The notes under the pieces: generated by a model
The model's database searches: none
Told to the model about the DNA's origin: nothing
Seen by the model: only the letters and a program-made list of their open reading frames with translations
Source: an uncultured delta proteobacterium
GTDB taxonomy: Bacteria > Desulfobacterota > Binatia > UBA9968
Direction of reading: 5' to 3'
Assembly (NCBI GenBank): GCA_963737905.1
Contig: CAVTUQ010000028.1
Location: forward strand, 160,001 to 224,000
DNA: 64,000 bases
Translations under genes and position numbers: made by a program
Shown here: piece by piece, positions 3,434 through 64,000 of the stretch
How the letters are laid out: the number at the start of each line of letters is the position of its first letter
Position numbering within the stretch: position 1 is the first letter of the stretch

Positions 3434-4005
3434 AAGCACGGAGCATGGAGCGCGGAGCACGGAGCCGGACGGGGAAATTTCGGATTTCGAATTTCGGATT
3501 GTTTTCCGACTTCTGCTCTCGTGCTCCGTGCGCTCTGCTAGTTGCTCTTTGCTCCTGCGCTTACCGCTTAGCTCCTAGCGCTTTGCTCTTGGCTCCCCGC
3601 TCCAAGCTCCCTGCTCCCAGCTGTTTTTCAAATCCGCAATCCGCAATCCGAAATTGTTCTTTGCTCTTACCGCTTCCTCTTGCTCCCTGCTCTGAACCAG
3701 AGGTCAGAGATCGAGACATGTTCAGCCGCCGAATCAGTAAATTCGCAGATGCAGAAACCCGATCTAAATTCGCAATGCAGAAACCCGAAAGGCTCAAGTC
3801 AGAGGCCAGCAATTTCGCAATCTCCGCAATCTATCTTACTTAGCTCTTTGCGCTTAGCTCTTAGTCTTAGTAAATCCGCAATTCGCAATTCGAAATCCGC
3901 AATTGTCTTTGCTCTTCCCCCTTACCCCTTACCTATTTGCTCTTAGCTCCCTGCTCTCTTGCTCCCTGCCCCCTGCTCCCCGCTCCAAGCTCCCTGCTCC
4001 TTGCT
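3434..4005. repeat. Mosaic of degenerate heptamer tandem repeats (GAGCNNG/GCTCCNT, AATYCGM, TTWGCTC, TCAGAGG families)
   Basis: 7-nt periodicity readable directly, e.g. gagcacg gagcatg gagcgcg; aatccgc aatccgc aatccga; both orientations present. Confidence 0.85.
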
Positions 4006-6454: not shown

Positions 6455-6757
6455 GTGGCTAAAAACCCAAAAAAAGCGGCATCTTACTCCGCGGTTTACA
6501 CGGTGGAGGAGTTCGCCAAAATTTTTAAGCTTTCACCGCAATCGGTACGAACCCTCATCCGAACGGGCGAGATTCCAGCCATTCGTATTGGGAAACAGCA
6601 CCGTATCCCTCAGGCGGTTGTCGACCACTATTTCGCTCAAGCGACCTCACCTCGGGAACGTGGGTTCGGCATGTGGAAAAAGAACCGCGTCCCAAGTCTT
6701 ACCTACGTCAACAAGCTGCGAGATCAAGAACAAAAAAAGCACAGAGCATGGAGCTAG
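6455..6757 (+). CDS. Excisionase-type helix-turn-helix protein, antitoxin-like, C-terminus runs into repeats
   Basis: YTVEEFA...V...IRTGEIPAIRIGKQHRIP (HTH_17-like) plus GFGMWK; opposite strand to the cluster. Confidence 0.7.
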   Translation: MAKNPKKAASYSAVYTVEEFAKIFKLSPQSVRTLIRTGEIPAIRIGKQHRIPQAVVDHYFAQATSPRERGFGMWKKNRVPSLTYVNKLRDQEQKKHRAWS

Positions 6758-7112
6758 GAGCGTGGAGCCGCCCTTAGCTCTTCATCCTTCGCACGTACCG
6801 CTTCGCGCTTATCTCTTAGTCCACAGTAAATCCGCAATTCGCAATTCGAAATCCGCAATTGGCTTCGCTCCCTGCTGTCGCTACCAGAGATCAGAGGTCG
6901 GAAGTCAGAGGTCAGAAAATTCGCAATCCGCAATCCGAAATTCGCAATTCCCTTTGCTCTTCCCCCTCACCCCTTTGCTCTTAGCAGTCTTTTAAATTCG
7001 CAATCCGCAATTCGAAATTCGAAATCGCCTTTGCCCTTAGCTCTCTTGCTCCGCGCTCCAAGCTCCCCGCTCCATGCTCTTACCCCTTACCCCTTTGCTC
7101 TTTGCCCCTTTC
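6738..7112. repeat. Heptamer repeat mosaic (four families)
   Basis: gagcatg; aatccgc aattcgc aattcga; tcagagg tcggaag tcagagg; ttacccc ttacccc tttgctc. Confidence 0.8.
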
Positions 7113-11082: not shown

Positions 11083-12905
11083 CTATACGCTAGTTTTCTC
11101 TACAAGAAAACTCCCGATGGCCAGCACATCCATCTTCGTTCGTTTGAAACAGTCAATCGCCTCTTCCGGCGTGCAAACGACCGGCTCGTTCTCATTGAAA
11201 GAGGTGTTAAGCAGGACCGGAACGCCGGTAAGATTTTCGAATTCTTTGATCAGTTTCCAGTAGCGCGGATTCCCATCACGGTCGACGGTTTGAAGCCTGC
11301 CCGTGCCGTCGACGTGAGTCGGTGCCGGAATCACGGAACGCTTCTCTTGCTTAACCTTATAGGCCATGAGCATGAACGGCGACGGATGGGTCTCTTCGAA
11401 ATAATCTCCGACGCGCTCAAGCAAGATCGACGGTGCGAAAGGACGAAACGGTTCGCGGTGTTTTATTCGGCTATTTAGCATGTCTTTCATCTCGGCCCGG
11501 CGCGGATCGACCACAATGCTCCGATTTCCCAAAGCACGAGGGCCAAATTCCATTCGTCCCTGAAACCACCCACGACTTTCCCCGTCGGCGATCTTCCGCG
11601 CCGTGGCCTTGACCAACTCTTCTTCACTCAATTCCGCTATCCGAAATCCGAAATCCGAAATGGTACGGATGACCGGTGACCAATGACCGACGACTTCTGG
11701 CTCCCTGCTTCCGGCTCCCTGCTCCGTGCTCCCCGCTCCCATCCCCTCACGCCTCACCCCTAACGCCTCACGAATTTGGCTATCGCCAAATTCCGGCCCC
11801 CAATACGTATGCTTCATCTCGAACGAGCGCGGTTGTCCCAGAATTTGATTCCACACATAAAAAGCTCCGCCGATAGCGAGCCCTGCGTCGCCGGCCGCGG
11901 ACTGGATATAGACTTTCTCAAACGGTGTCTTGGCAAGAATTTTCCCGTTGGCGACGCAGTTGTAAGCCACACCGCCGGCGAGGCAGAGTTTTTTTATGCC
12001 GTAGAGTTTGTAAAGTCTGTCGAGCATGGCGAGCATGGCATCTTCGAGCCGGACCTGCAGCGACGCGGCGATATTCTGATGCCGCTTTTCGACAGGCGCT
12101 CCTGCCGCCCTTTCGGGTCCTAGTTGTCTCGTGAGGAAATCTCCATAGAGCTTGCCGATCTTCGGCTCACCGTCCCGCCAGGTCATTTCCGGAGCCGATT
12201 TGTGATGGATGAAGTGATCCAACCCGAGTGAAAATCCGACATTGCCATTGATTTTAACGATCTCGTCGAAGCGGTCGCGATATTCCGGCTGCCCATAGGA
12301 GGCCAGACCCATGACCTTGTACTCATCGCCGTAGTTCCAAAAACCTAAATATTGAGTCAGCGCTGTGTAGTAGATGCCGAGTGAATGCGGGAATGCAATC
12401 GACCCTCGATCCTCTGATTTCCCTGCCCCAAACCCCACATCGTGCTGGCAAAGTCGCCCAATCCGTCGATCGACAACAAAGCCGCTTCCTCGAAAGGCGA
12501 AACAAAAAACGAACTCGCCAGATGGGCTTTGTGATGCTCCACCCGATGGATTTGCGCCTTGATCTCCTCACGCCTCACTCCTAACGCCTCACCCAATTCT
12601 TCCTGAATGCCAAAAAACTTCGCCTGCGCGCCAAGACGATTGAGCCCCAAGCGCGGTATTTTTACCGCATAAAGCGCCTTCCTCCAAATTCGCGCTCGCG
12701 GATCGCGCGCCACCGCCACGTGTTCAATGTCCTTAGCTTCCAAACCCGCTATCTTCAGGCAGGCTCGAATAGCGTTGGCCGGGAAACCCGCCGCGTGCTT
12801 TATGCGGATAAAGCGCTCCTCTTCCGCCGCCGCGACGAGCTGCCCGTCTATGATCAGTGCTGCGCTGGCGTCACCGTGGTAAGCGTTGATGCCGAGAATA
12901 ACCAT
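11083..12905 (-). CDS. Carbamoyltransferase (NodU/CmcH family), one frameshift near 12400-12440
   Basis: N-part ILGINAYHGDASAAL...AAAEEERF, EHHKAH, DGLGD; C-part DEYKVMGLASYG, AGGVAYNC, GDAG, EFGPRALGNRS, REPFRPFAP, LLNTSFN. Confidence 0.9.
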
Positions 12906-19002: not shown

Positions 19003-21157
<2,155 letters not shown>

Positions 21158-33281: not shown

Positions 33282-34637
33282 TTAGAGGCGAAAACTGTGT
33301 TTTGTGACAAAGACGCCCTGTCCCAACGGCGGCAATCGGCCGGTCCCAAAGAAATCTCCACTTTCAACTTCGAATGTTCCCGCATTCCGAATCCAATCGG
33401 CGATCGCTCCATTCACGGTAGCGTACAATGTAAGATGATAGCGGCCGGGTAAGAGTGGAAAGGCAGGGATTTTCACCGAGATCTCGCGTACCTCAGCTGA
33501 AACAAGTAGAAAGTCCCCTTGCGCGATGGCCGTATCTAATAACAACACCCGCTGGCCGATGTTATTGTCCACTCCGATGCTAACGTGGAAATTACGGAGA
33601 TCGCGAGCGTGCGGGTTGCTAAACTTTATCACTAAAGTGCCCGGTGCACCGCATACAAAGGCACCTAGCGGTTTGGCATCTTTGTTACGCAACTCAATAC
33701 CTATAAACCGAATTGCACCAGATCCCTGCCGATCCAATCGTTCCTCGATCTTCATGTCAACTAGGCTGGTGGATTTGTATTGATAATGATGAATCACTTC
33801 CGCAATGTCTCCCTGCGAAGCGACTCGACCGCTGGAAAGATGCAGCCCCGTGTGACATAGATTCTGCGCTGCTGCCATCTGGTGACTGACAAACAACACT
33901 GTGCGACCCCCTCGAGCGACCTCCGACATCTTGCCCAGGCATTTCTTTTGAAACTCAGCATCGCCCACAGCCAGGACTTCATCGACGATTAGAATTTCCG
34001 GCTCCAGGTGGGCGGCCACTGCAAACGCCAGCCGGACGTACATGCCGCTGGAATATCGCTTGACGGGCGTGTCAATGAATTTCTCCACTCCGGAAAAGTC
34101 CACGATCTCGTCGAATTTCTTCTGAACTTCGGCCCTCGTCATGCCGAGAATCGCGCCGTTCACGAAAATATTTTCGCGCCCGGTTAATTCCGGATGAAAG
34201 CCCGTTCCTACTTCCAGCAAGCTCGCCACCCGGCCACGGATACGCACGCGGCCTTCGGTCGGCTCCGTGATCCGGCTGAGAATCTTGAGCAGAGTGGTTT
34301 TGCCGGCGCCGTTGCGCCCGATGATGCCGAGTACCTCGCCCTGTTTCACCTCAAAATTCACCCCCCGGAGAGCCCAGAACTCCTCGCTAGCCAGAGGTCG
34401 GAGGTCAGAGGTCAGAGGTCGCAAACCAGAGGTCGGAGGCCGGAGGTCAGAGGTCGGAGCACCATTATCTGATCTCTGATGTCTGATCGCTGACGTCTGG
34501 CCAGAGAGCCAGCGTAGCGGTGCCGCCGCTTTTTCAGCGATGACATCGCGGAGCGCGACATACCGCTGATGATCCTGCTGGTGGCGGATCTTGTATTTCT
34601 TGCCGAGGTTTTCGACGCGTATGATGAAGTCAGACAT
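33282..34637 (-). CDS. wzt: Polysaccharide ABC transporter ATP-binding protein with C-terminal Wzt_C domain
   Basis: [29 protein letters not shown]; ~38-aa repeat-derived insert before EEFWAL. Confidence 0.93.
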
Positions 34638-34667
34638 GGCCAGAGGTCAGAAGTCAGACGTCGGAGG

Positions 34668-35090
34668 TCAGATGTCAGAGATCAGAAAAGGGCCGGGGTT
34701 CTTGATCATACTACCAAGCATTTTCCCAACCTCTTGAGACATCAACGCTAACTCACGATGTTGTTCCAGCGTGAGAAAGCCGCACTCGCGAGCAAAATCC
34801 AATGAAGAATCAGTTTCGCTGTTTTCACCGTCGCAGTCGGTTAACTTGCTAATGAAATGCGCTTCGTATCTTCTCTTTGCCCAGGCCTCTCTTAAATTCA
34901 AGCAGACCGACCGCGATGACCGCCGTATTTGACTGGTCAGCGCAAAACGCTCTTCATCTGGGAATTTCTTGCTAAGTGTGAATATTTTCATCGCCAGATC
35001 ATAGGCCTTTTTGTAAACTTCCAAGTCTTTGGCTGAATTAAGTCTCACACCTTCCCCGCTGATCTCGGACTTCTGACTGCTGGTCTTCAA
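34668..35090 (-). CDS. Four helix bundle protein (third, divergent subtype)
   Basis: KDLEVYKKA...FPDEERFALTSQIRRSSRSVCLNLREAWAKRRY; start uncertain. Confidence 0.92.
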   Translation of the reverse strand: MKTSSQKSEISGEGVRLNSAKDLEVYKKAYDLAMKIFTLSKKFPDEERFALTSQIRRSSRSVCLNLREAWAKRRYEAHFISKLTDCDGENSETDSSLDFARECGFLTLEQHRELALMSQEVGKMLGSMIKNPGPFLISDI

Positions 35091-35127
35091 ATAGCTGACT
35101 TCTGACCTCTGATCGCTGACCTCTGGT

Positions 35128-35958
35128 TCAAATGACGTCCGCGAAACTTCGTTCGACGCGGCGGAAATACCAGATCCCGAAAATACAGAGGCCAGATGTC
35201 AGAGCCACAGAGGTCAGAACACTCGGCCACCATAACGGGACTTCGCCGCGGAGGAGCGCCCAGCGGAAGCCGTCGATGACACCGACCATTGGGTTGAGGG
35301 AATAGAGCAGGCGCCAGTTAGCCGGGATGTTTTCGCTGGTGAAGCCAACAGGCGAAACATACAAGCCGAATTGAACGATGAATGGAATGACATAGCGGAA
35401 ATCGCGGTATGTCACGTTGAGCGCGCAGAGCCATAGGCCGGCGCCAAAGGCGGAACCGAATGCCAGAGCCACAAACAGCGGCAAGGTCACGATCCGCCAG
35501 TCGGGCAGAAAGCCGTACCAAACCATCATCGCCGCCATCAGCCCGAAGGTGATGAGAAAATCCACGAAGCTCGTGATGACGGACCCCGCCGGAACGATCA
35601 TGCGCGGAAAGTAAACTTTGGAAATCAAGTTCGCATTGCTGACGAGACTATTGCTCGACTCGCTCAGCGCGGTCGAGAAAAACTGCCACGGCAGCATCGC
35701 GGCAAATACCAGCAGCGGATACGGCACGGAACCGGGCGCTTCGAGCTTGGCGACTTTGTTAAAAACAATCGTGAAGACAATCATCGTGACGAACGGCCGG
35801 ATCAGCGCCCAGGCGATGCCGATCACAGTCTGTTTGTAACGCACGGTCACATCGCGCCAGGCGAGAATGTAGAACAGCTCGCGGTAGCGCCAGAGGTCGC
35901 GCCAGTAGTTCCGGAACGAGCGGCCGGGTTCGATTACGAGTTCGTCGGGCATTGGCAT
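35128..35958 (-). CDS. wzm: Polysaccharide ABC transporter permease
   Basis: RDVTVRYKQT.IG.AW, LISKVYFPR, YRDFRY, LNPMVGVIDGFR. Confidence 0.93.
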   Translation of the reverse strand: MPMPDELVIEPGRSFRNYWRDLWRYRELFYILAWRDVTVRYKQTVIGIAWALIRPFVTMIVFTIVFNKVAKLEAPGSVPYPLLVFAAMLPWQFFSTALSESSNSLVSNANLISKVYFPRMIVPAGSVITSFVDFLITFGLMAAMMVWYGFLPDWRIVTLPLFVALAFGSAFGAGLWLCALNVTYRDFRYVIPFIVQFGLYVSPVGFTSENIPANWRLLYSLNPMVGVIDGFRWALLRGEVPLWWPSVLTSVALTSGLCIFGIWYFRRVERSFADVI

Positions 35959-36228
35959 GCTAGCAAAGAGCAAAGGGGTAAGCGGTAAGAGCTAGGACAA
36001 TTTCGGATTGCGGATTGCGGATTTACCAAACGCTAAGTGCTAAGGGCGAAGCGGTAAGGGCAAAGAGCTAAGAGCATTTCGGATTTCGAATTGCGAATTT
36101 GAAGACTGCAAAGTGCTAAGCGGTAAGGGCTAAGTGTCAAGAAAACCGGCAAAGAGGTCTAGAATTTCGGAATTCGAATTGCGAATTTGCTGACTTCTGA
36201 TCTCTGACCTCTGGGATATTAGACACCC

Positions 36229-36447
36229 CTACTTAACTGCCTCAACCGGTAGGTTCTCAATACTTACATTAACAATGTCTGCCAAACTGAATCGCTGGCT
36301 CACATCCAGAACTTCTATGCCAATTACTTGACCGTTCGCACCGAAATCTACCACGACACCGTCTTCAATTTCTTTGGACTTCGCCACATGCGTCTCCGTG
36401 AAGTAAACGTAGATGGCGTCGGCCTCTTTGCTATATTCAATTTTCAT
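36229..36447 (-). CDS. DUF2283 family antitoxin-like protein
   Basis: MKIEYSKEADAIYV...VVDF...GQVIGIEVL. Confidence 0.85.
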   Translation of the reverse strand: MKIEYSKEADAIYVYFTETHVAKSKEIEDGVVVDFGANGQVIGIEVLDVSQRFSLADIVNVSIENLPVEAVK

Positions 36448-36614
36448 TGCCCCTCCAATCTACGGCTTATTGACGACACTGATAATGAGAACTTCCTCAC
36501 GGATAGCATGGAGCGTGGAGCTCGGAGCTAACTCAACCAGAGATCAGAAGTCGGCGGTCAGATGTCAGTAACTGCAAAGAGAAGAGAAAACTCCATTGCG
36601 GATTTGCTCGCTCT

Positions 36615-36804
36615 TTATAAATCGCGCCAAGCTTCATCCTCTTCCGGTCTAAGCCAGTCTCTGTTCAGTACTCCTTCACTCAAAATGGCCGTCTCCAATC
36701 TCTCTTTGGCATCCTGAGTTTTTAAGAAACGAACGAAGTCCTACCGGAAGATCCTCTATTTCCTGGATGAATAATTTTTTCGGTTGCATCTTCTTTGCGT
36801 CCAT
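36615..36804 (-). pseudogene. DUF2281-type antitoxin with internal deletion/frameshift
   Basis: IQEIEDLP / DFVRFLK...ETAILSE..L.RDWLRPEEDEAWRDL* in two frames. Confidence 0.65.
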
Positions 36805-36839
36805 TTTTAAACGCTGCGGGCAAAAAGTGGGCGCTGTCC

Positions 36840-37199
36840 CTAAATCCACGGGCCAAGAAATTCCAGCTGGTTTTGCATTTCCTCCATTGATTTCGCACCG
36901 ATTAATTTTAGAAGACCGCGCATCTGGTCTCCTACAGAATAACGTTGCTGCGGTGCGAGAATAATGCCCGCGTGTGATTTGCCCTCAGATAGATACTGCG
37001 TATGGAGCCGGCAGAAGTCGCCAACGTTAAAACTGTACAAGACGCGGCTGTACGTGGTCGCATACTCTAGATGCTCCTCATCTTTACGCTCGATCATGCG
37101 TGCTTCTAAAGACGAAACTACATCCACATTGCGAGCCCGCAAAGCTGTAATCAAGACATGGCGCATGGAATCCTCATCAAAGTACAAACGAATCGTCAT
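36840..37199 (-). CDS. DUF5615 PIN-like toxin
   Basis: IRLYFDED, DEEHL.YA, SFNVGDF, HAGII. Confidence 0.85.
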   Translation of the reverse strand: MTIRLYFDEDSMRHVLITALRARNVDVVSSLEARMIERKDEEHLEYATTYSRVLYSFNVGDFCRLHTQYLSEGKSHAGIILAPQQRYSVGDQMRGLLKLIGAKSMEEMQNQLEFLGPWI

Positions 37200-37492
37200 G
37201 AAGCCCTGCGGCTCAGGAAATGCTCCCGCTCCAGTCTTTCAACCTCCGCCTCTTCTGAAGCGATATCGGTTTCGATTTCTGCCCGGTTCGCATGATAGTA
37301 AGCCAACGCCGCATAGACTTGCGCTAATGATAAGTGAGGAATCTCCAGCGTAATCTCCTCTGGACTTAACCCCAGCTTGTACCACCCTACAATCCGACGC
37401 ACAGTCACACCTGTACCTGCAATACGTGGGCGTCCCCCACGAATCTCCGGCGTCCGAACAATCAACGTTCCAATGTCATTTGGTGTTGGCAT
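37196..37492 (-). CDS. DUF433 antitoxin
   Basis: GGRPRIAGTGVTV...G.SPEEI...PHLSLAQVYAALAYY; overlaps the toxin start. Confidence 0.88.
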   Translation of the reverse strand: MPTPNDIGTLIVRTPEIRGGRPRIAGTGVTVRRIVGWYKLGLSPEEITLEIPHLSLAQVYAALAYYHANRAEIETDIASEEAEVERLEREHFLSRRAS

Positions 37493-37865
37493 AGCTTTTA
37501 CTCCCATAACTTTACTCTCCGACGTACTAGGAATTTTAACACGTGTGGCGATCCCAATGCCAAAGGGGAAAGAGCGAAGCCAATTGCGGATTTCGGATTG
37601 CGAATTTCGAATTTGAAGACTGCTAAGGGCCAAGCGGTAAGCGCAAAGAGCATGAAAGCATGGAGCAGGGAGCCTGGAGCTAAGAGCAAAATATAACGCT
37701 AAGGGCGAAGGGCGAAGAGCATTTCCTATTGCGAATTTCGGATTGCGAATTTACCGAACGCAAAGAGCTAAGCGGTAAGCGCAAAGAGCTAAGGGGCAAG
37801 AGCAAGACATTTCGAATTGCGAAATGTTTTTCTGACTTCTGACGTCTGACCGCCGATCTCTGAAC

Positions 37866-38120
37866 TTACTCACCACGGGCATATTTTAGATCGTCCTCAA
37901 GCTCCTCCGGACCATAGTGGCGCGGGATGCCACGCTCTCCTAATACCTGACCAAATTCGTATTTCCCTATGCCGGCCAGCTCCCTAGCTTTACCAAACGA
38001 CAAAAGCCCACGGGCATATAACGAGATTGCCAACTCTTTTAACAGTTCCTGTGCCATGCGCTCTTCCGGCAACCGGATAGACTGGAGTACTGAATCCGGG
38101 ACGTGCAATTGCAAGCCCAT
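37866..38120 (-). CDS. UPF0175 family antitoxin
   Basis: LAISLY..GLLSFGKARELAG...F...L.ERGI...EELEDD. Confidence 0.85.
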   Translation of the reverse strand: MGLQLHVPDSVLQSIRLPEERMAQELLKELAISLYARGLLSFGKARELAGIGKYEFGQVLGERGIPRHYGPEELEDDLKYARGE

Positions 38121-38169
38121 CTTTTCTCCCTTTCTTTCTGTCTTTTTGCCACGGACTGCAAAAGGTTAA

Positions 38170-38373
38170 TTAACCGCCGCTTTCCTTCGGCGAGATTTCC
38201 GGGCCGGGTTCGTTTTCTAATCCCCGCACCGCCGCCCGGAATGATAATTCTGACCAGTCGATATCTTCCGCTCGAAGCTTCAGTGCCAGATGCTTCACAA
38301 ATTCTAGCACCTCTCGTCGCAACGGTTCCGGTAACGCCTTGACCTCCTTATAGATACGATCGGCCGTTTCCAT
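38170..38373 (-). CDS. DUF2281-type antitoxin
   Basis: LPEPLRREVLEFV..L. Confidence 0.7.
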   Translation of the reverse strand: METADRIYKEVKALPEPLRREVLEFVKHLALKLRAEDIDWSELSFRAAVRGLENEPGPEISPKESGG

Positions 38374-38375
38374 TC

Positions 38376-38630
38376 CTAGCCTCCGCGTCGCTGCTCCCGT
38401 ACGACGTCAGACATCTGGCCTCGAATCGTGGCTGGGCGCATGCGCAACTCTTCAAGTCGAAGCCCAGGTCCCGTGGTTTCATTTAAGAATTTCGCAAGCG
38501 GAGTTTCTCGCCGCTTCTTTTCAGTCAGAAATTCGATGAAATCCATCACTTCAGCGATCTGCTGTGGCTCGAGGGCGTTAATTCTTCCCAGGATGCTTTT
38601 TTCTGTTAAGTCTTTCGATTCGTGTTTCAT
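38376..38630 (-). CDS. DUF2281-type antitoxin
   Basis: L.PQQIAEVMDFIEFL. Confidence 0.7.
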   Translation of the reverse strand: MKHESKDLTEKSILGRINALEPQQIAEVMDFIEFLTEKKRRETPLAKFLNETTGPGLRLEELRMRPATIRGQMSDVVREQRRGG

Positions 38631-38794
38631 ATTATTGCCTGAACTCTGAAAATGGAAAGCTGAAAGCAGAAAGTTGAAATCTGATTTCTGTTTTCTACTT
38701 TTTGTTTTCCCAATTTTCCTGAATGTATGATTGGCAGGTTTGACGTAAAGCGAATTCTGCTGGGGACGTTTTCATCCAAGAGAAATGCTTTCAA
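38627..38794 (-). pseudogene. DUF5615 PIN-like toxin truncated after ~30 codons
   Basis: TTG start overlapping the DUF433 stop: MKAFLLDENVP..., then runs into a GAAAGNN heptamer hairpin. Confidence 0.65.
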
Positions 38795-39012
38795 ACCAAA
38801 TCCTGAAGCCTGAAATGATTTTTCATCAATTCAGCAGAGAACCGCAAGCACTCTAGGACATCTTCCTTTGAAAGCGATGGATACTCCTCCAGCACATCCT
38901 CTACGGTATCCCCTGCCGCCAAAAACTCCAGAACCGTGCGCGCCGTTATTCGCGTACCTTCAATCACGGGCTGTCCGTTGCAGATGTCTGGATCGATAAC
39001 GATTCGTTTCAT
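38791..39012 (-). CDS. DUF433 antitoxin
   Basis: RIVIDPDICNGQPVIEGTRI...G.T.EDVLEEYPSL. Confidence 0.88.
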   Translation of the reverse strand: MKRIVIDPDICNGQPVIEGTRITARTVLEFLAAGDTVEDVLEEYPSLSKEDVLECLRFSAELMKNHFRLQDLV

Positions 39013-39340
39013 AGCGCTATGATAACCGCCGACGCTGCAAAAACAAGAGCCACCAAGAGCCGTCAGCCAGAGATCAGAAGTCAGAAGTCGGAGATCAGAA
39101 TCTCGCTAAGCGGCAAGCGCTAAGGGCGAAGCGCAGAGATCGGAATTCAGAAATCAGAGGGTCAGCCAGCTATAAACCAGAGATCAGCGATCAGAGATCA
39201 GAAGTCGGCAAATTCGAAATTCGCAATTCGAAATTCGCAATCCGCATTTTCTTAGCTCGATGCTCCTCGCTCCCTGCTCCCTGCTCCATGCTCTTACCCC
39301 TTACCCCTTACCGCATTGCCCTTTGCTTCGCGCTTCGCGC

Positions 39341-42300
39341 TCAGCTCCCCACCAGGCGGCTGCGGAGAGCGGCTAGGGCTTCGCGCGCTTCGCGGTGGGA
39401 CGGATAGAGCTGGAGAACACGCTCGTATTCCCGGGTCGCATCGCGGAGCTCTCCCACGCGAACGTAGGCATTGGCCAGGCGGAGGCGGGTTGTCAGATCG
39501 GCGGGCTCCTGCGACAGGATGGCCTGCCACAGCTCGATGGCGTGGAAAAACTTTTCGTTTTCAAACAGACGCTGGGCGAACCGCGCTTTGTACTCGCCAT
39601 TGCGCCGGTCAAGCTCGATCGCCTGCTTGTAGGCGTTGAAGGCGGCTTGCCAGGCGCCGGCGCCGTCCAGGGCTACCGCGAGTTGGAAATACGCTCCTGC
39701 GTCTGCTGAGTTCTCTTTCACCAATGCCTCCCATATGGGAATGGCCAGGGCAAATTGACCGCGCTTGGTGTAATAGCGGGCCAAAGCGAAGTTGATGCGG
39801 TAGGCTCGTGACACGGGCGTCGAGGAGTCAGCTTGGCCAAGTTCTTTTTGGACGAGCTTGACGAAAAGACGGCGGTGAGGCGGAAGCCCGTCGGAGTCCG
39901 GAGCCGGTGCTTTGGCAACGGCAGCCGCTCCATCGCCCGATTGTTTGGCCAGCAGGAGCGCGGTCTGAAAATTCACGAGGGCGCCGCTGTTCTCTCCCAT
40001 CGAGGAAAGTACTTCGGCGATGGCCAGACGAATCTCCGGATTCTCCGGGTCTAATCCGATCGTACTCTCCAGCTCCGAGAGCGCCTCGGGGAGTTTTCTA
40101 GCCCGGATCAGGGCGTTGGCATAGAGGCGACGGTAAATCGGTTTTTCCCCGGGTGAGGCGAGTGCGAGCGCCTTCTGATAGCTTTCGTCCGCCTGCAGCC
40201 GGAGTCCTTTCTTATCCAGGAGAGTCGCGAGGTAAAGACGATCAACCGAAGTGTTGGGGACCAGCGCCTGGAGATCTTCACGTTCGCTAGTCACGGCCAG
40301 GGCCCGGTCGAGAAGCTCAGGGAGCAGTTCCGGATTGAGAGCGACGGCGTTACGCACCGCGGCGAGAGCGGTTGCGCGCAGTGGCGTGGCGGGCGGAGGA
40401 AGACGCGCCTGAGAAAAGGCAAACAGCGCAAGCACCCGGTGGCGGGCCGGATTGGCGGGATCGAGGCTCACGGCGCGGTTGAAGTGAGTCAGGGCAAGGC
40501 GGCGCGTTTCGACGGCGGCTTCTGCCTGACCTGCCGACTGGGCTTGAATGAGGGCGCGGGTTCCGAGCAGCCAGGCCAAGCGCTCGTGCAGCGCGGCCTC
40601 ATAGGGCGCATCGTTCAGAGCACGCCGATAGTCATGCTCGGCTTGATCGAGCAGCGCCATAGCCACTTTGGTTCTTACCTCTTGAGTCCTAAGTATCGTA
40701 GCGTCGGGGCCGACCGCCCGGTTCCATGCCCGGCTCGCTTGCTCCTCGAGCTTGCTGGCGCGGAGGCGCAACGCTGCCGGATGTCCCGGAGAAATTGAAA
40801 TGACCCGTCCAAGCAGCTCCAAAGCTCGGCGTTCGTTCTCGAGGCGCTGAACTAATGAAGTTGTCATTGTGGGAGCGCTGGCTTGGGATTCCATGAAGGC
40901 GACCGCCGACTGAAACCTGTTCTCCGCCAACGGCGGACTCACGATAGAAAATACCGCGACGAGAGCCAGCCCGGCAACGATAACGCCGGCCGACACCTGA
41001 CGAAAACGTCCCGCAATCGGGTAGTGACGTACGGTGACGAGAGGTTGTGTTATGTTGCGGAAAAAACGGTTGTGGAGAGCGACTGTGGCAATGGCCAAAA
41101 GCGTAGCGAGGAGAATTCCATTGGCGGGAATGCGTAAGGAGAAATCGAGAAAGCTATGGAAGAAAACGGCAACCACTCCGCCTAATGCCCCGATGGCGAT
41201 GCCAACGTTGTACGGGTCCCGGCGATAAATATCCTCAATGTCGGCTTGACGATAAAAACAATGACCTCGACCCAAGAGGTGAGCGCCAATGAGATCTCGT
41301 CCAACACGCCACAAGGCAACTAAAAGGATCAGGCCTCCGACGAGACCGGTTTCAATCCAAAACTGGAGATGGTCGTTATGGGCATGAGTGAAGTGAACGG
41401 ATCCCGGCGTAAGCTCGATGGGCTGAAAACGAGGGAAGAGATCGCCATAACTCCCAAGGCCCGTTCCAAACAGGGGAGCAATGCGTAACATCGGGAGGCT
41501 CGCCCAGTACTGGGTGATTCTAGACTGGAGGCCCGTGAAGGCCAGGCCGAATCGCTCGAGGATAGGGTCGAGACCGATCCAGGCCGCATAGGTCAAGGTC
41601 AAGAGGACCAAGGCGGCGAGTAAAAGATGACTGGGACGAGCCGCCTGGCGGACCAAAAGAATTCCGACCAGCACAACTAAGGATAGAATGAGACTCACCA
41701 CCCCGGCTCTGGAGAGCGTGAAAACCAGCGCCACGGCCATGATGGTGATAGCGAATAACAGAAGCAGCTCTTGCCAGACCCTGTGGGGAAAGCGATGCGG
41801 CGTGAATTTTTTAACGGCGACTGCTGACTCCTCATCCGTTATCCAGTAGTCGCGCAGGGAGAGAGTCGTCGTCGAAGCCGAATGGCGCCTTCTCTGCCGG
41901 CGGAGAAGCTTGGTGGAAAGCAAGAAGCCGAGAGCGAGAGGAATCAGCATTGCGAGCCAGGCGGCAAAGTGGTCCGGGTTTACAAAGGTCCCGGTCACTC
42001 TTCCTGCATAACTGAGCTTTTTCGAGCCGAAAACCCCATAACCCCCGCCCAGGTAGTCCAGGAGACCGTAAAAAGCTAAAAGGCTTCCCATGACAAGCAG
42101 AAACCGAACGAGGCGATCGATTTGCAACCGCTCGCGAAACTGATTGACGACCAGGAAGTAAACCGCGGCGTAGGTAAGGAAAAGTCCCACGGCATGGCGA
42201 GTGGAGGCGGGCGCCAGGCTACCGGAGAAAAATATCGATGGTAATTGCGCTTCGGCGGAAGGCGACAGGGCCCAGTTCCGCAATGCGTTGTTTCCAAGAG

Positions 42301-42535
42301 CGAGCTGGAGAAACAGGACACCGACAAATAGGAGGAAAGGAACGTTCAGTGGGGTGCGAACGATTACCAGCTCTCCTTCAGCGATCATTTTGACAACCCA
42401 GGTCAAAACCGCGAAGAGAGCCAGCAGCTCGACAATCGCCAGCGGCCAGCCCTCCACCGAGCCATAGGGGAGGGGAGCGAACAGCAACAGAGCGTATAGC
42501 ACGCCGGTGACGGTCAGGTCAGCGATCCGACTCAT
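39341..42535 (-). CDS. O-antigen ligase family (Wzy_C) membrane protein fused to a long TPR region
   Basis: RVTGTFVNPDH, TLSRAG, PLFGTGLGSY, HAHND; C-terminal TPR-like repeats. Confidence 0.85.
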   Translation of the reverse strand: MSRIADLTVTGVLYALLLFAPLPYGSVEGWPLAIVELLALFAVLTWVVKMIAEGELVIVRTPLNVPFLLFVGVLFLQLALGNNALRNWALSPSAEAQLPSIFFSGSLAPASTRHAVGLFLTYAAVYFLVVNQFRERLQIDRLVRFLLVMGSLLAFYGLLDYLGGGYGVFGSKKLSYAGRVTGTFVNPDHFAAWLAMLIPLALGFLLSTKLLRRQRRRHSASTTTLSLRDYWITDEESAVAVKKFTPHRFPHRVWQELLLLFAITIMAVALVFTLSRAGVVSLILSLVVLVGILLVRQAARPSHLLLAALVLLTLTYAAWIGLDPILERFGLAFTGLQSRITQYWASLPMLRIAPLFGTGLGSYGDLFPRFQPIELTPGSVHFTHAHNDHLQFWIETGLVGGLILLVALWRVGRDLIGAHLLGRGHCFYRQADIEDIYRRDPYNVGIAIGALGGVVAVFFHSFLDFSLRIPANGILLATLLAIATVALHNRFFRNITQPLVTVRHYPIAGRFRQVSAGVIVAGLALVAVFSIVSPPLAENRFQSAVAFMESQASAPTMTTSLVQRLENERRALELLGRVISISPGHPAALRLRASKLEEQASRAWNRAVGPDATILRTQEVRTKVAMALLDQAEHDYRRALNDAPYEAALHERLAWLLGTRALIQAQSAGQAEAAVETRRLALTHFNRAVSLDPANPARHRVLALFAFSQARLPPPATPLRATALAAVRNAVALNPELLPELLDRALAVTSEREDLQALVPNTSVDRLYLATLLDKKGLRLQADESYQKALALASPGEKPIYRRLYANALIRARKLPEALSELESTIGLDPENPEIRLAIAEVLSSMGENSGALVNFQTALLLAKQSGDGAAAVAKAPAPDSDGLPPHRRLFVKLVQKELGQADSSTPVSRAYRINFALARYYTKRGQFALAIPIWEALVKENSADAGAYFQLAVALDGAGAWQAAFNAYKQAIELDRRNGEYKARFAQRLFENEKFFHAIELWQAILSQEPADLTTRLRLANAYVRVGELRDATREYERVLQLYPSHREAREALAALRSRLVGS

Positions 42536-42708
42536 AAAACTTTAAGCAGGGAAGCTTGGAGCATGGAGCCACAGATAGCATGGAGCTTGGAGCAGGGAGC
42601 ATGGAGCTAAGACACTCAAAGAGCATGGAGCATGGAGCTAAGACATAACGCCAAAGAAGCAGGGAGCTTAGAGCCACAGATAGCCGGGCTAGCGCTGTAG
42701 CAGCGGAG

Positions 42709-43074
42709 CTAGGATTTTAGAGTACGGCGAAAGGCTAAAAGCATTCTGCTTTCCTCTTCCAGTTCCGATAGTAACTTCCGGACCGTTTCAGACGGTAAAT
42801 AATTGTCTTTAGACAAAATCATCAGGATATTCGCTACCTCGAAAACTGACCGCCGGGACATATTCAGGAAGTTTGCGAAATCTGTATCAGATGCACTTCC
42901 CGATCCCTCAGCTATATTATTCGTAATACTTAGGGTTGCGCCACGTAATTGTTCAGCAAATCGGAATAATCTCCTCTCTTCGAGATTTTCCGCCAATCTG
43001 AATAGCTCAGCACTAATAGCAGCGCCTCGTTTCCAAATCTCTAACTCCTGAAATCGAAATTGTGTTTCACTCAT
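42709..43074 (-). CDS. Four helix bundle protein (fourth gene, third subtype)
   Basis: FRFQELEIWK...QLRGATLSITNNIAEGSG...F..FL..SRRS..E. Confidence 0.92.
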   Translation of the reverse strand: MSETQFRFQELEIWKRGAAISAELFRLAENLEERRLFRFAEQLRGATLSITNNIAEGSGSASDTDFANFLNMSRRSVFEVANILMILSKDNYLPSETVRKLLSELEEESRMLLAFRRTLKS

Positions 43075-43166
43075 CTCGTGCGTTCGCTTCCGCTCCCTCC
43101 GGCTCTCGCTCCTTAGCTCCATGCTCCATGCTTCTTGCTCCCACGCTCCCTGCTCGCTTAGCGGCA

Positions 43167-43895
43167 TTATCCCCCGCCATTTCCCCGGCCGTAGTGATAT
43201 CCGCCGTAGTACTGGTAAAAGTATCGATAGTAGTAGCCGTCACGGCGGGGGTCTACCTGGCTCAGAAGAACTCCGATCATCTTGCCCTGGACAGCTTCAA
43301 TTTGCTCGACCGCCCGCCGCAATAGCTCGCGCGGCGCGCCCCCGGATTTGAGCACCAGGATGACGCCATCGCTCAATGCCGCCAGCGCTGCAGTGTCAGC
43401 CACGGACATAATCGGCGCCGAATCGAAGAGCAAGGTGTCGAACTTGCCGGCGAGAGTATCGACAAACTCGCGCATCCGATTGGAGCCGAGAAGCTCCCAG
43501 GGATTGGGCGGGAGCGGACCACTTGGCACCAGGTAAAGATTCGGGGTCGATGTTGCTACCACTACTTGATCGACACTTTTCGCTTCGGCGAGCGCGACAG
43601 TCAGACCGATGCCATTGGATACACCGAAAAGGTCGTGCAGGCTCGGCTGGCGAAGATCGGAGTCGATCAGGCAGACCCTTCCTCCCGCCTGGGCCATGGC
43701 CAACCCCAGGTTGGCAACCGTGGTGGTCTTCCCCTCGCCCGGAGTGGCAGAGGTGATGAGAAGCTTGCGGTAACCATCGTCGAGGTTGGAAAACTGGAGG
43801 TTTGTCCGCAGGGTACGGTAGGCCTCGGCGGCGACCGATTTGGGATCCGTTTCGAGAATGAGACTAAGCGGAGGGGGCGGGGGTTTCTTCAGCAT
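43167..43895 (-). CDS. CpsD/CapB family bacterial tyrosine kinase
   Basis: AEAYRTLRTNL, GEGKTT, DSDLR.P, DSAP, C-terminal Tyr cluster YYYRYFYQYY. Confidence 0.93.
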   Translation of the reverse strand: MLKKPPPPPLSLILETDPKSVAAEAYRTLRTNLQFSNLDDGYRKLLITSATPGEGKTTTVANLGLAMAQAGGRVCLIDSDLRQPSLHDLFGVSNGIGLTVALAEAKSVDQVVVATSTPNLYLVPSGPLPPNPWELLGSNRMREFVDTLAGKFDTLLFDSAPIMSVADTAALAALSDGVILVLKSGGAPRELLRRAVEQIEAVQGKMIGVLLSQVDPRRDGYYYRYFYQYYGGYHYGRGNGGG

Positions 43896-60408: not shown

Positions 60409-60611
60409 CTCTGATCATTCACTCGTGACAACGACGTGACGATTTCGCCTGCTCCGTCAGCGGGGACAGCAACGGAATCCAACTACCGACACGAAGTTTC
60501 CTCGACTATCAGAAACTAATGCATTCATCGGCCGCAGGCTCAGTGAATTACCGTGAGCAACTAATCCCGGCTTTTCGATCGGGGAGCCGGAGCCGGTCAG
60601 GGTCTGGAGGA

Positions 60612-61043
60612 TTATTCTCTCTTCCCTGCGCGGGCCATCAGTAATTGCTCCCGGCATTCTCGCGGCGTTACGATTGGCAACGATGATTGATCGGCAATGT
60701 CGAGAAGGTCTTTATCACCTATGGCCAACAGATCCGCCTGACCGGCGACCGCGGAAGCCAACACCCAACGGTCAGCAGGATCCCGGATCGGAAGATCGGC
60801 GGGGTGAAGAGGCTTGGGAACGATGGTTTGATCTCTGAGCTCGCGTTCGATCTCTTCGATCAGAGCAGGCCGTACTCTAAACGGGCGCCGGCGCAGAACA
60901 GACCGAAGTTCGGCAAGATTGACTTCTCCCGTCAGAAGCGAACATTGCGGATCAGTTAGGATTAGTTCGAGCAGCTCCGCGCAAAATTCTTGACGGGCGG
61001 TATATGCGCTGACAAGCACGTTCGTATCGAGAAATATCCTCAC
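60612..61043 (-). CDS. PIN-domain toxin
   Basis: MRIFLDTNVLVSA, RDP.D...L..A..G.AD....GDKDLL. Confidence 0.9.
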   Translation of the reverse strand: MRIFLDTNVLVSAYTARQEFCAELLELILTDPQCSLLTGEVNLAELRSVLRRRPFRVRPALIEEIERELRDQTIVPKPLHPADLPIRDPADRWVLASAVAGQADLLAIGDKDLLDIADQSSLPIVTPRECREQLLMARAGKRE

Positions 61044-61264
61044 GATACGGCGTTGAAGATGTCCTCATCGGTGAGAATACCGGCCTTAGCTTCAATCTCG
61101 GAGAGAACCGCTTGGCGGGTTTTTCGAAAACGCAGGAGGGCCACCTGGCGCTTGAGAGCATCGCGCGCGATTTCGCTTTTGCTCTGCCTAAGGGATCGTG
61201 ACAGACGCTTCAGTTCACGATCAAGCTTGGCATCGACGCGGATAGTTACCGTGGATGATTTCAT
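61040..61264 (-). CDS. CopG/ribbon-helix-helix antitoxin
   Basis: VTIRVD...L..L.....SKSEIARDAL; overlaps the toxin start. Confidence 0.85.
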   Translation of the reverse strand: MKSSTVTIRVDAKLDRELKRLSRSLRQSKSEIARDALKRQVALLRFRKTRQAVLSEIEAKAGILTDEDIFNAVS

Positions 61265-61407
61265 AGCGGTAATGTAATACGTCTGGCGCGCAGTGGCAAC
61301 TTGTTAGGACCTCTACATGGGGCACCAAAGGTTATCGAAGTATCACGTCGACCTGCTCCTGCACGTTGGAGAGTTGTTTTGATGAGCGCAGAGCTTATAA
61401 CCGTAAT

Positions 61408-61457
61408 GTGGCCAGGGATAGAATCGAACCGCCGATCCGAGAATTTTCAGTCCTCTG
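61408..61457 (-). pseudogene. 3' half of a tRNA-Phe(GAA), degenerate
   Basis: Minus strand CAGAGGA-CTGAAAA-TTCTC-GGATC-GGCGG-TTCGATT-CTATC-CCTGGCCAC; no D-arm or 5' acceptor strand upstream. Confidence 0.75.
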
Positions 61458-61762
61458 ACCGTAGCGAGACTATGTGACACCATTGGTCGCTATTTGTATC
61501 TATTCAAGCGTTTAACGGCGCTTCCAGTCGGTCGATTTTACCGATTCGAACACATAGTAACATATAGTTCTGGCAAAGTTGTGTCGAACACAGCGCCCAG
61601 AACCGAAGTATCGACGTAAAGTTTCACAGTTGATATCATCCTATGCAAGATCGGTAGTGGTGGCAAATCGCGATCGAATGAGCCATCCAAAATCAGAAAT
61701 TAAAGAACCAAAATCGAAGTCGTAAGATGTGGCCGAACAAGGTGCTAGAATAGGATGGTTAG

Positions 61763-62404
<642 letters not shown>

Positions 62405-62406
<2 letters not shown>

Positions 62407-62501
62407 ATTCATGCTCATTATCAACCTGAAGGTTGGCCAAGCAGATCGGCCTGACGATTCCGCCCAACGTGCTGGCGCGGGCGGACAAAGTGATCAGATG
62501 A
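62405..62501 (+). pseudogene. C-terminal remnant of an ABC_sub_bind substrate-binding protein
   Basis: KFMLIINLK / AKQIGLTIPPNVLARADKVIR*. Confidence 0.7.
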
Positions 62502-62660
62502 GCAAGAGGCATGTGGGCGACGGAGGCTGGCTCACTTAGGGCGAGCGGACATCGAATTGAGAATGCACCGGTGACTGAATATGAGATGTTCCAATCTAAC
62601 GTGGCGAATACTCGAACCTTCCGAGCTGACGGCTTATATTGTTATCCTCCACGATTAAAA

Positions 62661-64000
<1,340 letters not shown>

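Follow-up and report, generated by a model that had tools for sequence, protein, structure and literature searches.

Heptamer arrays and toxin-antitoxin remnants between the ligase and wzm genes of an uncultured soil bacterium

We analysed the interval between wzm and an O-antigen ligase-like gene (the ligase gene) in the polysaccharide cluster of an uncultured soil bacterium. This interval (35961-39345) lies in a 64-kb stretch of DNA, here called the window, which is carried by the 247-kb contig C28 and makes up 0.95% of the genome under study, G000. A first-pass annotation had described the interval as an array of antitoxin genes that is enclosed by one pair of inverted heptamer arms and resembles an integron cassette array. 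We found that this central claim is better explained by a heptamer satellite that extends through the whole locus, together with a decaying toxin-antitoxin island. The two end arms are not a unique pair, five of the antitoxin-type genes are orphans, and one toxin gene breaks off after five codons, where it meets an array. The ligase-wzm junction has probably gained two kinds of selfish or near-neutral DNA, which together mimic an enclosed cassette array.

Heptamer blocks and the pairing of the interval ends

Genome-wide, Tandem Repeats Finder (TRF) reported 904 rows with a period of 7, 14 or 21 nt, and 120 of these fell within the three 20-kb bins that cover the window. After merging, 85 of the 717 arrays, and 2,924 of the 20,587 nt that they occupy, were inside the window, with 15 arrays inside the interval; the concentration of arrays in the polysaccharide cluster is about 15-fold. 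As in the short tandemly repeated repetitive (STRR) sequences, the heptamer repeats of heterocystous cyanobacteria, the arrays found by TRF consist of tandem 7-nt units and are short and mainly intergenic. We distinguished four array families, namely A (GSNAAGN), B (ATTKCGR), C (CTGAYNT) and D (AGCNKGG). A scan of the window for these families on both strands yielded 103 arrays and 13 composite blocks of at least 100 nt. Heptamer arrays occupy almost every gap in the cluster, in both orientations. Those of the interval are:

35962-36217, unstranded: left composite block L, with the family order A-B-A-B-A-B-C and a TRF higher-order period of 76 nt at 35966-36120
36505-36600, unstranded: short internal arrays, D+ then C-, and a B remnant (array scan)
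37553-37866, unstranded: middle composite block M, B-A-D-A-B-A-B-C, with which block R pairs best locally
39060-39345, unstranded: right composite block R, C-, A+, C-, C-, B-, D-, A-, in inverted orientation relative to L and M

Blocks L and M are direct repeats of each other (alignment score 106), while the best inverted pair (I1) joins 36162-36213 with 39185-39236 over 52 nt at 87%. Self-comparison by BLAST identified the blocks as 73-86% copies of each other, nearly all of them inside the window. Sequences like block M and the internal C/D arrays are present in 22 other genomes of the order (123 genomes were searched, G000 among them). G006, G012, G065 and G085 are not counted in the 22 and underlie none of our claims. 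Within G000, the A-type arm sequence is confined to this locus.

The end sequences on which the enclosure had been based are present as quoted. The left one reads AGCAAAG AGCAAAG GGGTAAG CGGTAAG AGC in an array that starts at 35962, 3 nt from the wzm ATG (35956-35958, minus strand). The right array does end near the ligase stop codon (39341-39343), but the gap is 13-14 nt (array end at about 39327) and not about 11 nt, and the spacer consists of 2.4 copies of GCTTCGC. The in-register inverted match between the two ends was also reproduced (pair I6, 35 nt at 80%; 26/33). This match exceeds random expectation, because only four positions of the 6.7-Mb genome (3910, 6955, 7075 and 39296) match the reverse complement of the left arm at 26/33 or better. 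Since all four sites lie inside the window and the site at 7075, 29 kb off, fits better than the right end (29/33 versus 26/33), the right-end partner is neither unique nor best, and a single enclosing pair of arms is not what the locus contains. The right arm, for its part, matches all three A-type arrays of block L equally (pairs I4, I6 and I7).

We then compared the predicted pairing of the blocks. Among the 78 pairs that can be cofolded from the 13 composite blocks, M-R ranked 10th (ddG -72.5 kcal/mol) and L-R 14th (-59.7 kcal/mol); the best partners of L and M were the blocks at 6745-7112, 3838-4005 and 3559-3678, which are 29-32 kb distant. In the predicted minimum-energy fold of the minus-strand RNA of the whole interval (3,406 nt), R pairs with M through helices of 10+57+9+18+29+9 bp, and L is unpaired with R. 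A cofold of R with M gave a ddG of -79.4 kcal/mol with 135 intermolecular pairs, compared to -59.1 kcal/mol for R with L. Enclosure by the left and right ends is thus not what the predictions indicate, since R pairs better with M and this pairing divides the interval in two.

Inverted pairs of arrays are, moreover, common. At a match of at least 19/21, we counted 36 inverted versus 57 direct pairs among the 598 array pairs within 5 kb of each other in the window, which is no enrichment of inverted over direct pairs. Elsewhere in the genome there were 13 inverted versus 33 direct pairs among 425, and the inverted ones outside the window bracket ordinary genes (UbiD plus NMT1, a BNR protein, SelB and substrate-binding proteins). 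As inverted bracketing is common, not enriched, and found around ordinary genes, it is the default in array-rich DNA. The left and right blocks resemble arms because any two oppositely oriented copies are complementary; they are two of many heptamer blocks, not a dedicated pair. This calls for caution in array-rich regions in general, where "inverted arms" around genes arise by default and should mark the boundary of a mobile element only when there is comparative evidence.

Small genes of the interval and their lost toxins

All genes of the interval are on the minus strand, as had been noted earlier. They are:

36229-36447, minus: DUF2283 gene (PF10049, E 1.6e-17), without partner in view
36606-36789, minus: DUF2281-like gene by motif reading, frameshifted, with a 37-aa piece that has no Pfam hit
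36840-37199, minus: DUF5615 gene (PF18480, E 7.7e-11), intact, the toxin-type partner of DUF433
37196-37495, minus: DUF433 gene 1 (PF04255, E 8.2e-21), with a 4-nt overlap with the DUF5615 start
37866-38120, minus: UPF0175 antitoxin gene (PF03683, E 8.9e-26), orphan
37868-37882, minus: MPVVS, a five-codon remnant of a DUF3368-type toxin, recognized by frame comparison with G015
38170-38373, minus: DUF2281/VapB-like antitoxin gene 1 (PF10047, 21.6 bits, sub-threshold), orphan
38376-38630, minus: DUF2281/VapB-like antitoxin gene 2 (PF10047, 23.7 bits, sub-threshold), orphan, 2 nt from gene 1
38627-38794, minus: 55-aa open reading frame (ORF) without Pfam or NCBIfam hit, with a 4-nt overlap with the stop of DUF433 gene 2
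38791-39012, minus: DUF433 gene 2 (PF04255, E 2.4e-25)

The earlier count of seven co-oriented antitoxin-type genes could be retained. The DUF2283 gene, both DUF433 genes and the UPF0175 gene score above their Pfam thresholds, with the reservation that two of the DUF2281-type genes score below the PF10047 (DUF2281) cut-off of 26.5 bits and the third is frameshifted and has no Pfam hit. The two frames of this third gene yield MQPKKLFIQEIEDLP... and ...DFVRFLKTQDAKERLE...DEAWRDL, followed by a stop, and its putative DUF2281 label is our own motif reading. An array of antitoxins only is, however, contradicted by the intact DUF433-DUF5615 pair within the interval. DUF5615 is the usual downstream partner of DUF433, and the present copy is 63% identical over 118 aa to a homologue in G070 that likewise comes after a DUF433 gene. 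This DUF5615 gene had been overlooked, as had the 55-aa ORF and the five-codon toxin remnant.

Adjacent, overlapping genes, by which type II toxin-antitoxin systems are recognized, were found for DUF433 gene 1 and DUF5615 (4-nt overlap) and not for the UPF0175 gene, the two DUF2281-type genes, the DUF2283 gene or DUF433 gene 2. Altogether, the cargo of the interval comprises one intact pair, one frameshifted gene, one 55-aa ORF and five antitoxin-type genes that have no partner. The two DUF433 proteins share 35% identity, and the nearest nucleotide relative of each small gene was found in a different genome each time. The 3' half of the 55-aa ORF is encoded by an 85-nt heptamer hairpin (38643-38727; -24.4 kcal/mol, z -3.1). 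We considered this ORF as a truncated DUF5615 gene, an assignment that was unsupported by Pfam, NCBIfam, BLASTP, tblastn and a PF18480 search with E values up to 10.

For the orphan UPF0175 gene, relatives indicate what is missing. It is 83% identical at the nucleotide level to a gene of G015 that is overlapped and followed by a DUF3368 gene and shares its contig and strand with the closest wzm orthologue (61% protein identity). At 40 of 46 related UPF0175 loci of the public genome collection (45 of which have downstream room) a toxin match is located directly downstream, and in 35 cases at least 129 aa were aligned. In G015 the start of the toxin reads MPVVSNTSPVLN; read from the same ATG, the frame in G000 gives MPVVSKFRDRRSDVRSQ. 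The start codon and first five codons (MPVVS) are thus kept in G000, and the frame then enters the C array of block M. Of the sequencing runs that matched, none was of RNA, and the best DNA run contained 0.24 of the words. Four runs (X1, X3, X5 and X6 of 14 candidates) provided short Logan contigs only, none of which spans the interval, and at each joint in these contigs the shorter side measures 20-35 nt, a length that mostly falls in the unreliable range. In X3, a loose end before 37866 resembles the G015 toxin start at 25/30 positions, by hand count on a short Logan contig.

The two DUF2281-type orphans gave comparable results. Gene 1 shows 76-80% nucleotide identity to genes of G095 and G119 that are followed there by a PemK/MazF-like toxin, and the homology ceases at the end of the antitoxin gene. 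Gene 2 shows 70% nucleotide identity to a G016 gene that is followed by a PIN gene, just after wzm. Because these homologues adjoin toxins, we regard both genes as antitoxin-type despite their sub-threshold scores. A tblastn search with four toxin-type proteins of relatives produced no match in the interval better than E 0.4, and MPVVS is the sole remnant found. Orphan antitoxins are frequent throughout G000, in which 13 DUF433 genes score above the cut-off as compared with 7 genes of DUF5615.

Chromosomal type II toxin-antitoxin islands place unrelated antitoxin families next to each other, have a low GC content, and can lose toxins with retention of the antitoxins. The interval is like these islands in its mixed antitoxin families, its low GC content, the scatter of its nearest relatives across genomes and phyla, and the loss of toxins from antitoxins that were kept. 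It differs from typical islands in its position at a junction of a polysaccharide operon, and in having a toxin replaced by a heptamer array after the fifth codon. As judged from the sequence, the simplest reading is that the cargo represents a decaying toxin-antitoxin island, which would have been assembled piecemeal and then stripped of its toxins.

DUF2283 is usually labelled as the antitoxin of DUF4258. This pairing found no support in G000, where none of the eight DUF2283 genes adjoins any of the four DUF4258 genes, and the label may not apply in this genome. Three of the eight DUF2283 copies lie within about 1 kb of a DUF433 gene (C7:470589-471903, C25:87949-88834 and window 36229-37495).

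Explanations for the interval

The reading that we prefer combines two components. The first would be a toxin-antitoxin island, now in three blocks, most toxins of which were lost and eroded while the antitoxin genes were retained. The second would be the composite tandem-heptamer blocks, which belong to four families and are diverged copies of one another. These arrays may have spread locally through duplication and slippage, and adjacent DNA, including toxin genes, may be replaced or deleted by them. The small genes would be read through from the cluster's own transcription, and the retained antitoxins may persist by neutralising related incoming toxins or by regulating transcription.

Several observations do not sit easily with this. 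Blocks M and R hold four module families in mirrored order, and the predicted interrupted R-M stem of about 132 bp encloses exactly the block of five genes, which is orderly for a passive filler. The arrays abut gene ends at 0-14 nt. Across genera, arms of the same family are kept at the wzt-wzm and ligase-wzm junctions while the content differs. Finally, 5/5 toxin-antitoxin loci of relatives have a period-7 array within 450 nt, a count that is relative to no background density.

A rival reading is an RNA cassette that resembles an intervening sequence (IVS), which we consider unlikely. Block R would pair with M (or L) in the transcript and RNase III would cut the stem, whereby the block of small genes would be released or silenced and the ligase message separated from the wzm message. 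Candidates for such cassettes adjoin the interval, with PF05635 (IVS-protein) genes at 34671-35090 and 42712-43167:

34630-35130, minus: PF05635 cassette between wzm and wzt, closed by C-/C+ arms (PF05635 E 2.9e-30; fold z -4.9)
42545-43165, minus: PF05635 cassette upstream of the ligase gene, closed by D+/D- arms (PF05635 E 3e-26; fold z -7.0)

Both are predicted to fold with closing heptamer stems. Moreover, 9 of the 11 PF05635 genes in G000 have an inverted match of at least 18/21 between their 260-nt flanks, as compared to 1 in 300 random sites. The R-M stem itself appears in the predicted minimum-energy fold (ddG -79 kcal/mol), and G016 carries a PF05635 cassette at the same junction.

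Excision of this kind has been demonstrated for the 23S rRNA IVS of Coxiella burnetii, which has a 28-bp stem that is cut by RNase III and, before the S23p ORF, GACAGAT heptamers whose copy number varies between strains (PMC4990558). The Coxiella IVS and the PF05635 cassettes of the window are alike in having complementary termini, a long stem, a small gene, and heptamers at the border between stem and ORF. The interval differs from this IVS in belonging to a protein-coding operon instead of 23S rRNA, in carrying toxin-antitoxin genes instead of PF05635/S23p cargo, and in its 250-310-nt composite arms of four families with predicted pairing, versus a 28-bp stem with demonstrated excision.

Several points speak against such an RNA cassette. 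Its stem would have to span 1.2-3 kb of translated RNA, and long-range minimum-energy predictions are unreliable. Blocks L and M are also predicted to pair better with blocks 29-32 kb away, and the complementarity is therefore a property of the families. Toxin-antitoxin genes are not regular cargo of heptamer arms. No PF05635 match was found by Pfam in any ORF of 35961-39345, so the cargo is not of the IVS type. None of the five loci of relatives with homologues of the interval's toxin-antitoxin pairs is bracketed by complementary arrays. Of the 13 DUF433 genes in G000, 9 lie more than 600 nt from any array, and the four that remain include the two genes of the interval.

A more far-reaching reading is that the composite blocks are fixed "docking" junctions (ligase-wzm and wzm-wzt) in the polysaccharide operons of this bacterial family, which would make them an integrase-less cassette platform. 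Small selfish genes (PF05635 or toxin-antitoxin) may be swapped there over evolutionary time while the arms persist, either via array-to-array DNA recombination or via RNA stems processed by RNase III, and the toxins of captured modules may be overwritten. We regard this as improbable.

We compared the junctions with those of relatives. G016 is the one relative that keeps the order Wzz/kinase - ligase - wzm, with a wzm of uncertain orthology as it is only 47% identical. Its ligase-wzm gap of 0.44 kb holds a frameshifted PF05635 gene between inverted arrays of the GGAGCAG and GCTCCCT types. In G015, wzm is preceded by a GHMP-kinase gene with a 15-nt gap, while the ligase-like gene is on another contig and is followed by arrays and then by PqqD and radical-SAM genes. 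The G007 ligase gene is followed by arrays and a PIN gene.

At the wzt-wzm junction, C-type arms are collinear in G000 (34630-35130) and G015 (L024 3690-4150), and they enclose a PF05635 gene in the former and 270 unrelated nucleotides in the latter. No PF05635/IVS remnant was found in this G015 loop, which holds two copies of a palindrome, CCCCGCAGCTTGCTGCG, that is similar to repetitive extragenic palindromic (REP) elements. The cassette-like variability that the first-pass annotation had anticipated was borne out to the extent that content at the ligase-wzm junction differs between genera (G016 versus G000). Junction content thus varies between genera while the array families persist.

It is very unlikely that the interval is a selected anti-addiction array, in which orphan antitoxins are co-expressed with surface-polysaccharide genes against plasmid or phage toxins and the heptamers are incidental. 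Five antitoxin-type ORFs are still open in spite of lacking partners, two of them only 2 nt apart, and the UPF0175 protein shares 92% identity with its closest counterpart from another genome, versus 61% for wzm and its best relative. However, one antitoxin-type gene is already frameshifted, and orphan antitoxins are common throughout the genome.

The platform originally proposed, in which the blocks are DNA recombination sites that capture and lose small genes as a non-integron analogue of cassette arrays, is to our mind most unlikely. The co-oriented, tightly packed genes of different origins would fit it, as would the differences between genera at junctions where the array families persist. 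The direct repeats L and M could also delete the block between them, and one short Logan contig of X3 joins 36577 to 37580, although with 29 nt on one side this joint is below the reliability guide. The blocks are, however, degenerate (68-88% alike) and have no fixed core, and the loss of the toxins resembles erosion more than an exchange of modules. The absence of integron hallmarks was confirmed. PF00589 gave 12 matches in the genome, 0 of them on contig C28, and no recombinase was found on the contig or among the ORFs of the window. Integrase-less cassette arrays, or clusters of attC sites lacking integron-integrases (CALIN), are known, and the absence of an integrase alone is therefore not decisive. 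A crude script that searched 35900-39400 on both strands for R''/R' core pairs (RYYYAAC/GTTRRRY, at a spacing of 45-150 nt) detected no attC-like site, with 0 pairs versus 1.1 expected from 20 shuffles.

Toxin-antitoxin cassettes are described in sedentary chromosomal integrons (PMC13108822). The interval and integron cassette arrays are alike in their co-oriented, packed small genes, toxin-antitoxin genes included, with no promoters evident. They differ in that the interval has no IntI or tyrosine recombinase on its contig, no attC-like sites and few toxins, most being missing, and in that its repeats are tandem heptamers, compared to the single imperfect palindromes of integron arrays.

That the interval is an assembly artefact, with foreign low-GC fragments joined in the bin via shared heptamer repeats, is extremely improbable: the GC drop inside the interval, the 46-contig bin and the frequent ends of relatives' contigs beside wzm or ligase would suit it, but the imperfect arrays have lengths of just 20-60 nt, relatives independently place UPF0175 and DUF2281-type pairs in such clusters on the same contig as wzm or ligase, and the same array families flank every block.

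Genomic setting and heptamer repeats elsewhere

G000 is a metagenome bin of 6.7 Mb in 46 contigs, with 54.5% GC, 87% completeness and 6.7% contamination. Its polysaccharide (exopolysaccharide (EPS)/O-antigen) cluster is on the minus strand and extends over about 46 kb (window positions of about 3400-49600), with genes for glycosyltransferases, GDP-mannose dehydratase, Wzz/GNVR, a kinase, Poly_export, the Wzy_C+TPR "ligase", wzm and wzt. Those at and beyond the interval's flanks are:

33282-34637, minus: wzt, in the polysaccharide cluster
35128-35958, minus: wzm, the ABC-2 membrane component of the polysaccharide exporter (PF01061, E 3.9e-19), left flank of the interval
39341-42535, minus: Wzy_C (O-antigen ligase/polymerase-like) plus TPR protein (PF04932, E 9e-18, plus TPR families), right flank of the interval

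The GC content of the interval is 39-56%, that of wzm about 55-58%, and that of the neighbouring 1.7 kb of the ligase gene mostly 59-67%. The best relative of the wzm protein is that of G015, as given above. For the ligase, no close orthologue was found among 40 relatives, the best match having 36% identity over partial length. A metagenome scan returned one 2.8-kb contig at 83% identity that lies wholly within the ligase gene. Strain-level relatives were found neither among these genomes nor in the metagenome scan or the sequencing runs. An Rfam search gave three matches, every one with an E value above 0.5 and far under the gathering scores. Promoter-like sites (3 versus 3.4 in shuffles) and terminator-like sites (9 versus 6.8) were at shuffle level.

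Heptamer repeats are over-represented in bacteria, with GGGAATC in Xanthomonas and GGGGA(C/T)T in Nostoc as examples in Rehm et al. 2015 (PMC4692102), which also gives 70 cases of convergent heptamer pairs in Xcc and 75 in Xac and cites the heptanucleotides of Calothrix PCC 7601. TAACTGA repeats are mentioned for Beggiatoaceae (PMC4679880). The arrays of the interval are like these intergenic heptamer simple sequence repeats in their tandem 7-nt units, mostly in 3-6 copies, on both strands and with convergent pairs. They are unlike them in that several unrelated families are concatenated, in the roughly 15-fold concentration in one cluster, and in also occurring in frame inside genes.

Our limited literature search yielded no paper in which heptamer arrays are connected with toxin-antitoxin islands, or with PF05635 genes of polysaccharide loci. 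Heptamer repeats have been known in bacteria for decades but, to our knowledge, no consensus on their role exists. The present locus offers concrete cases: a toxin cut at an array edge, persistent arrays with changing content, and a stem that is predicted to have about 130 bp. Of continuing interest are the R-M stem, which would surround a five-gene block, the array-overwritten toxin and the persistence of arrays at changing junctions.

Near the interval, the 30 nt upstream of the wzm start (35959-35990 region) contain, on inspection, no purine-rich Shine-Dalgarno-like stretch, and block L, if paired with another block, would bury the wzm start codon. The wzt frame stays open through a C-/C+ heptamer hairpin near the N-terminus (window 34384-34499), and G015 wzt has arrays at the equivalent position (L024 3399-3560). 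Several contigs of relatives stop within a few hundred bases of wzm (G008, G006, G033 and G012) or at the end of the ligase gene (G031), which is the pattern that assembly breaks at repeat blocks would give.

Elsewhere in the window, carbamoyltransferase and asparagine synthase are seemingly split into two and three ORFs (11086-12905 and 19006-21157), with heptamer arrays at or near the breaks of the split genes (19484-19580, 20216-20248 and 20657-20697). Arrays of families A-D are absent from a second toxin-antitoxin cluster, which is located at 60460-62700, beyond the polysaccharide locus, and consists of PIN, DUF433 and a DUF5615 gene that contains an internal TAA.

Other heptamer hot spots of G000 are C27:1-20000 (L049), C29:80001-100000 (L055) and C7:404400-409000 (L053). 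These are long tandem runs of paralogous genes for ABC substrate-binding proteins (PF04392, NMT1) with array-filled gaps, and a PF05635 gene is found among the runs in both L049 and L053. In the relatives, the ligase-like genes of G015 (L044 3636-7142) and G016 (L040 3323-6919) contain 0.7-1 kb of heptamer arrays of the same families. These array-bearing frames stay open for 1168 and 1198 aa and include 24 copies of TGACCAC.

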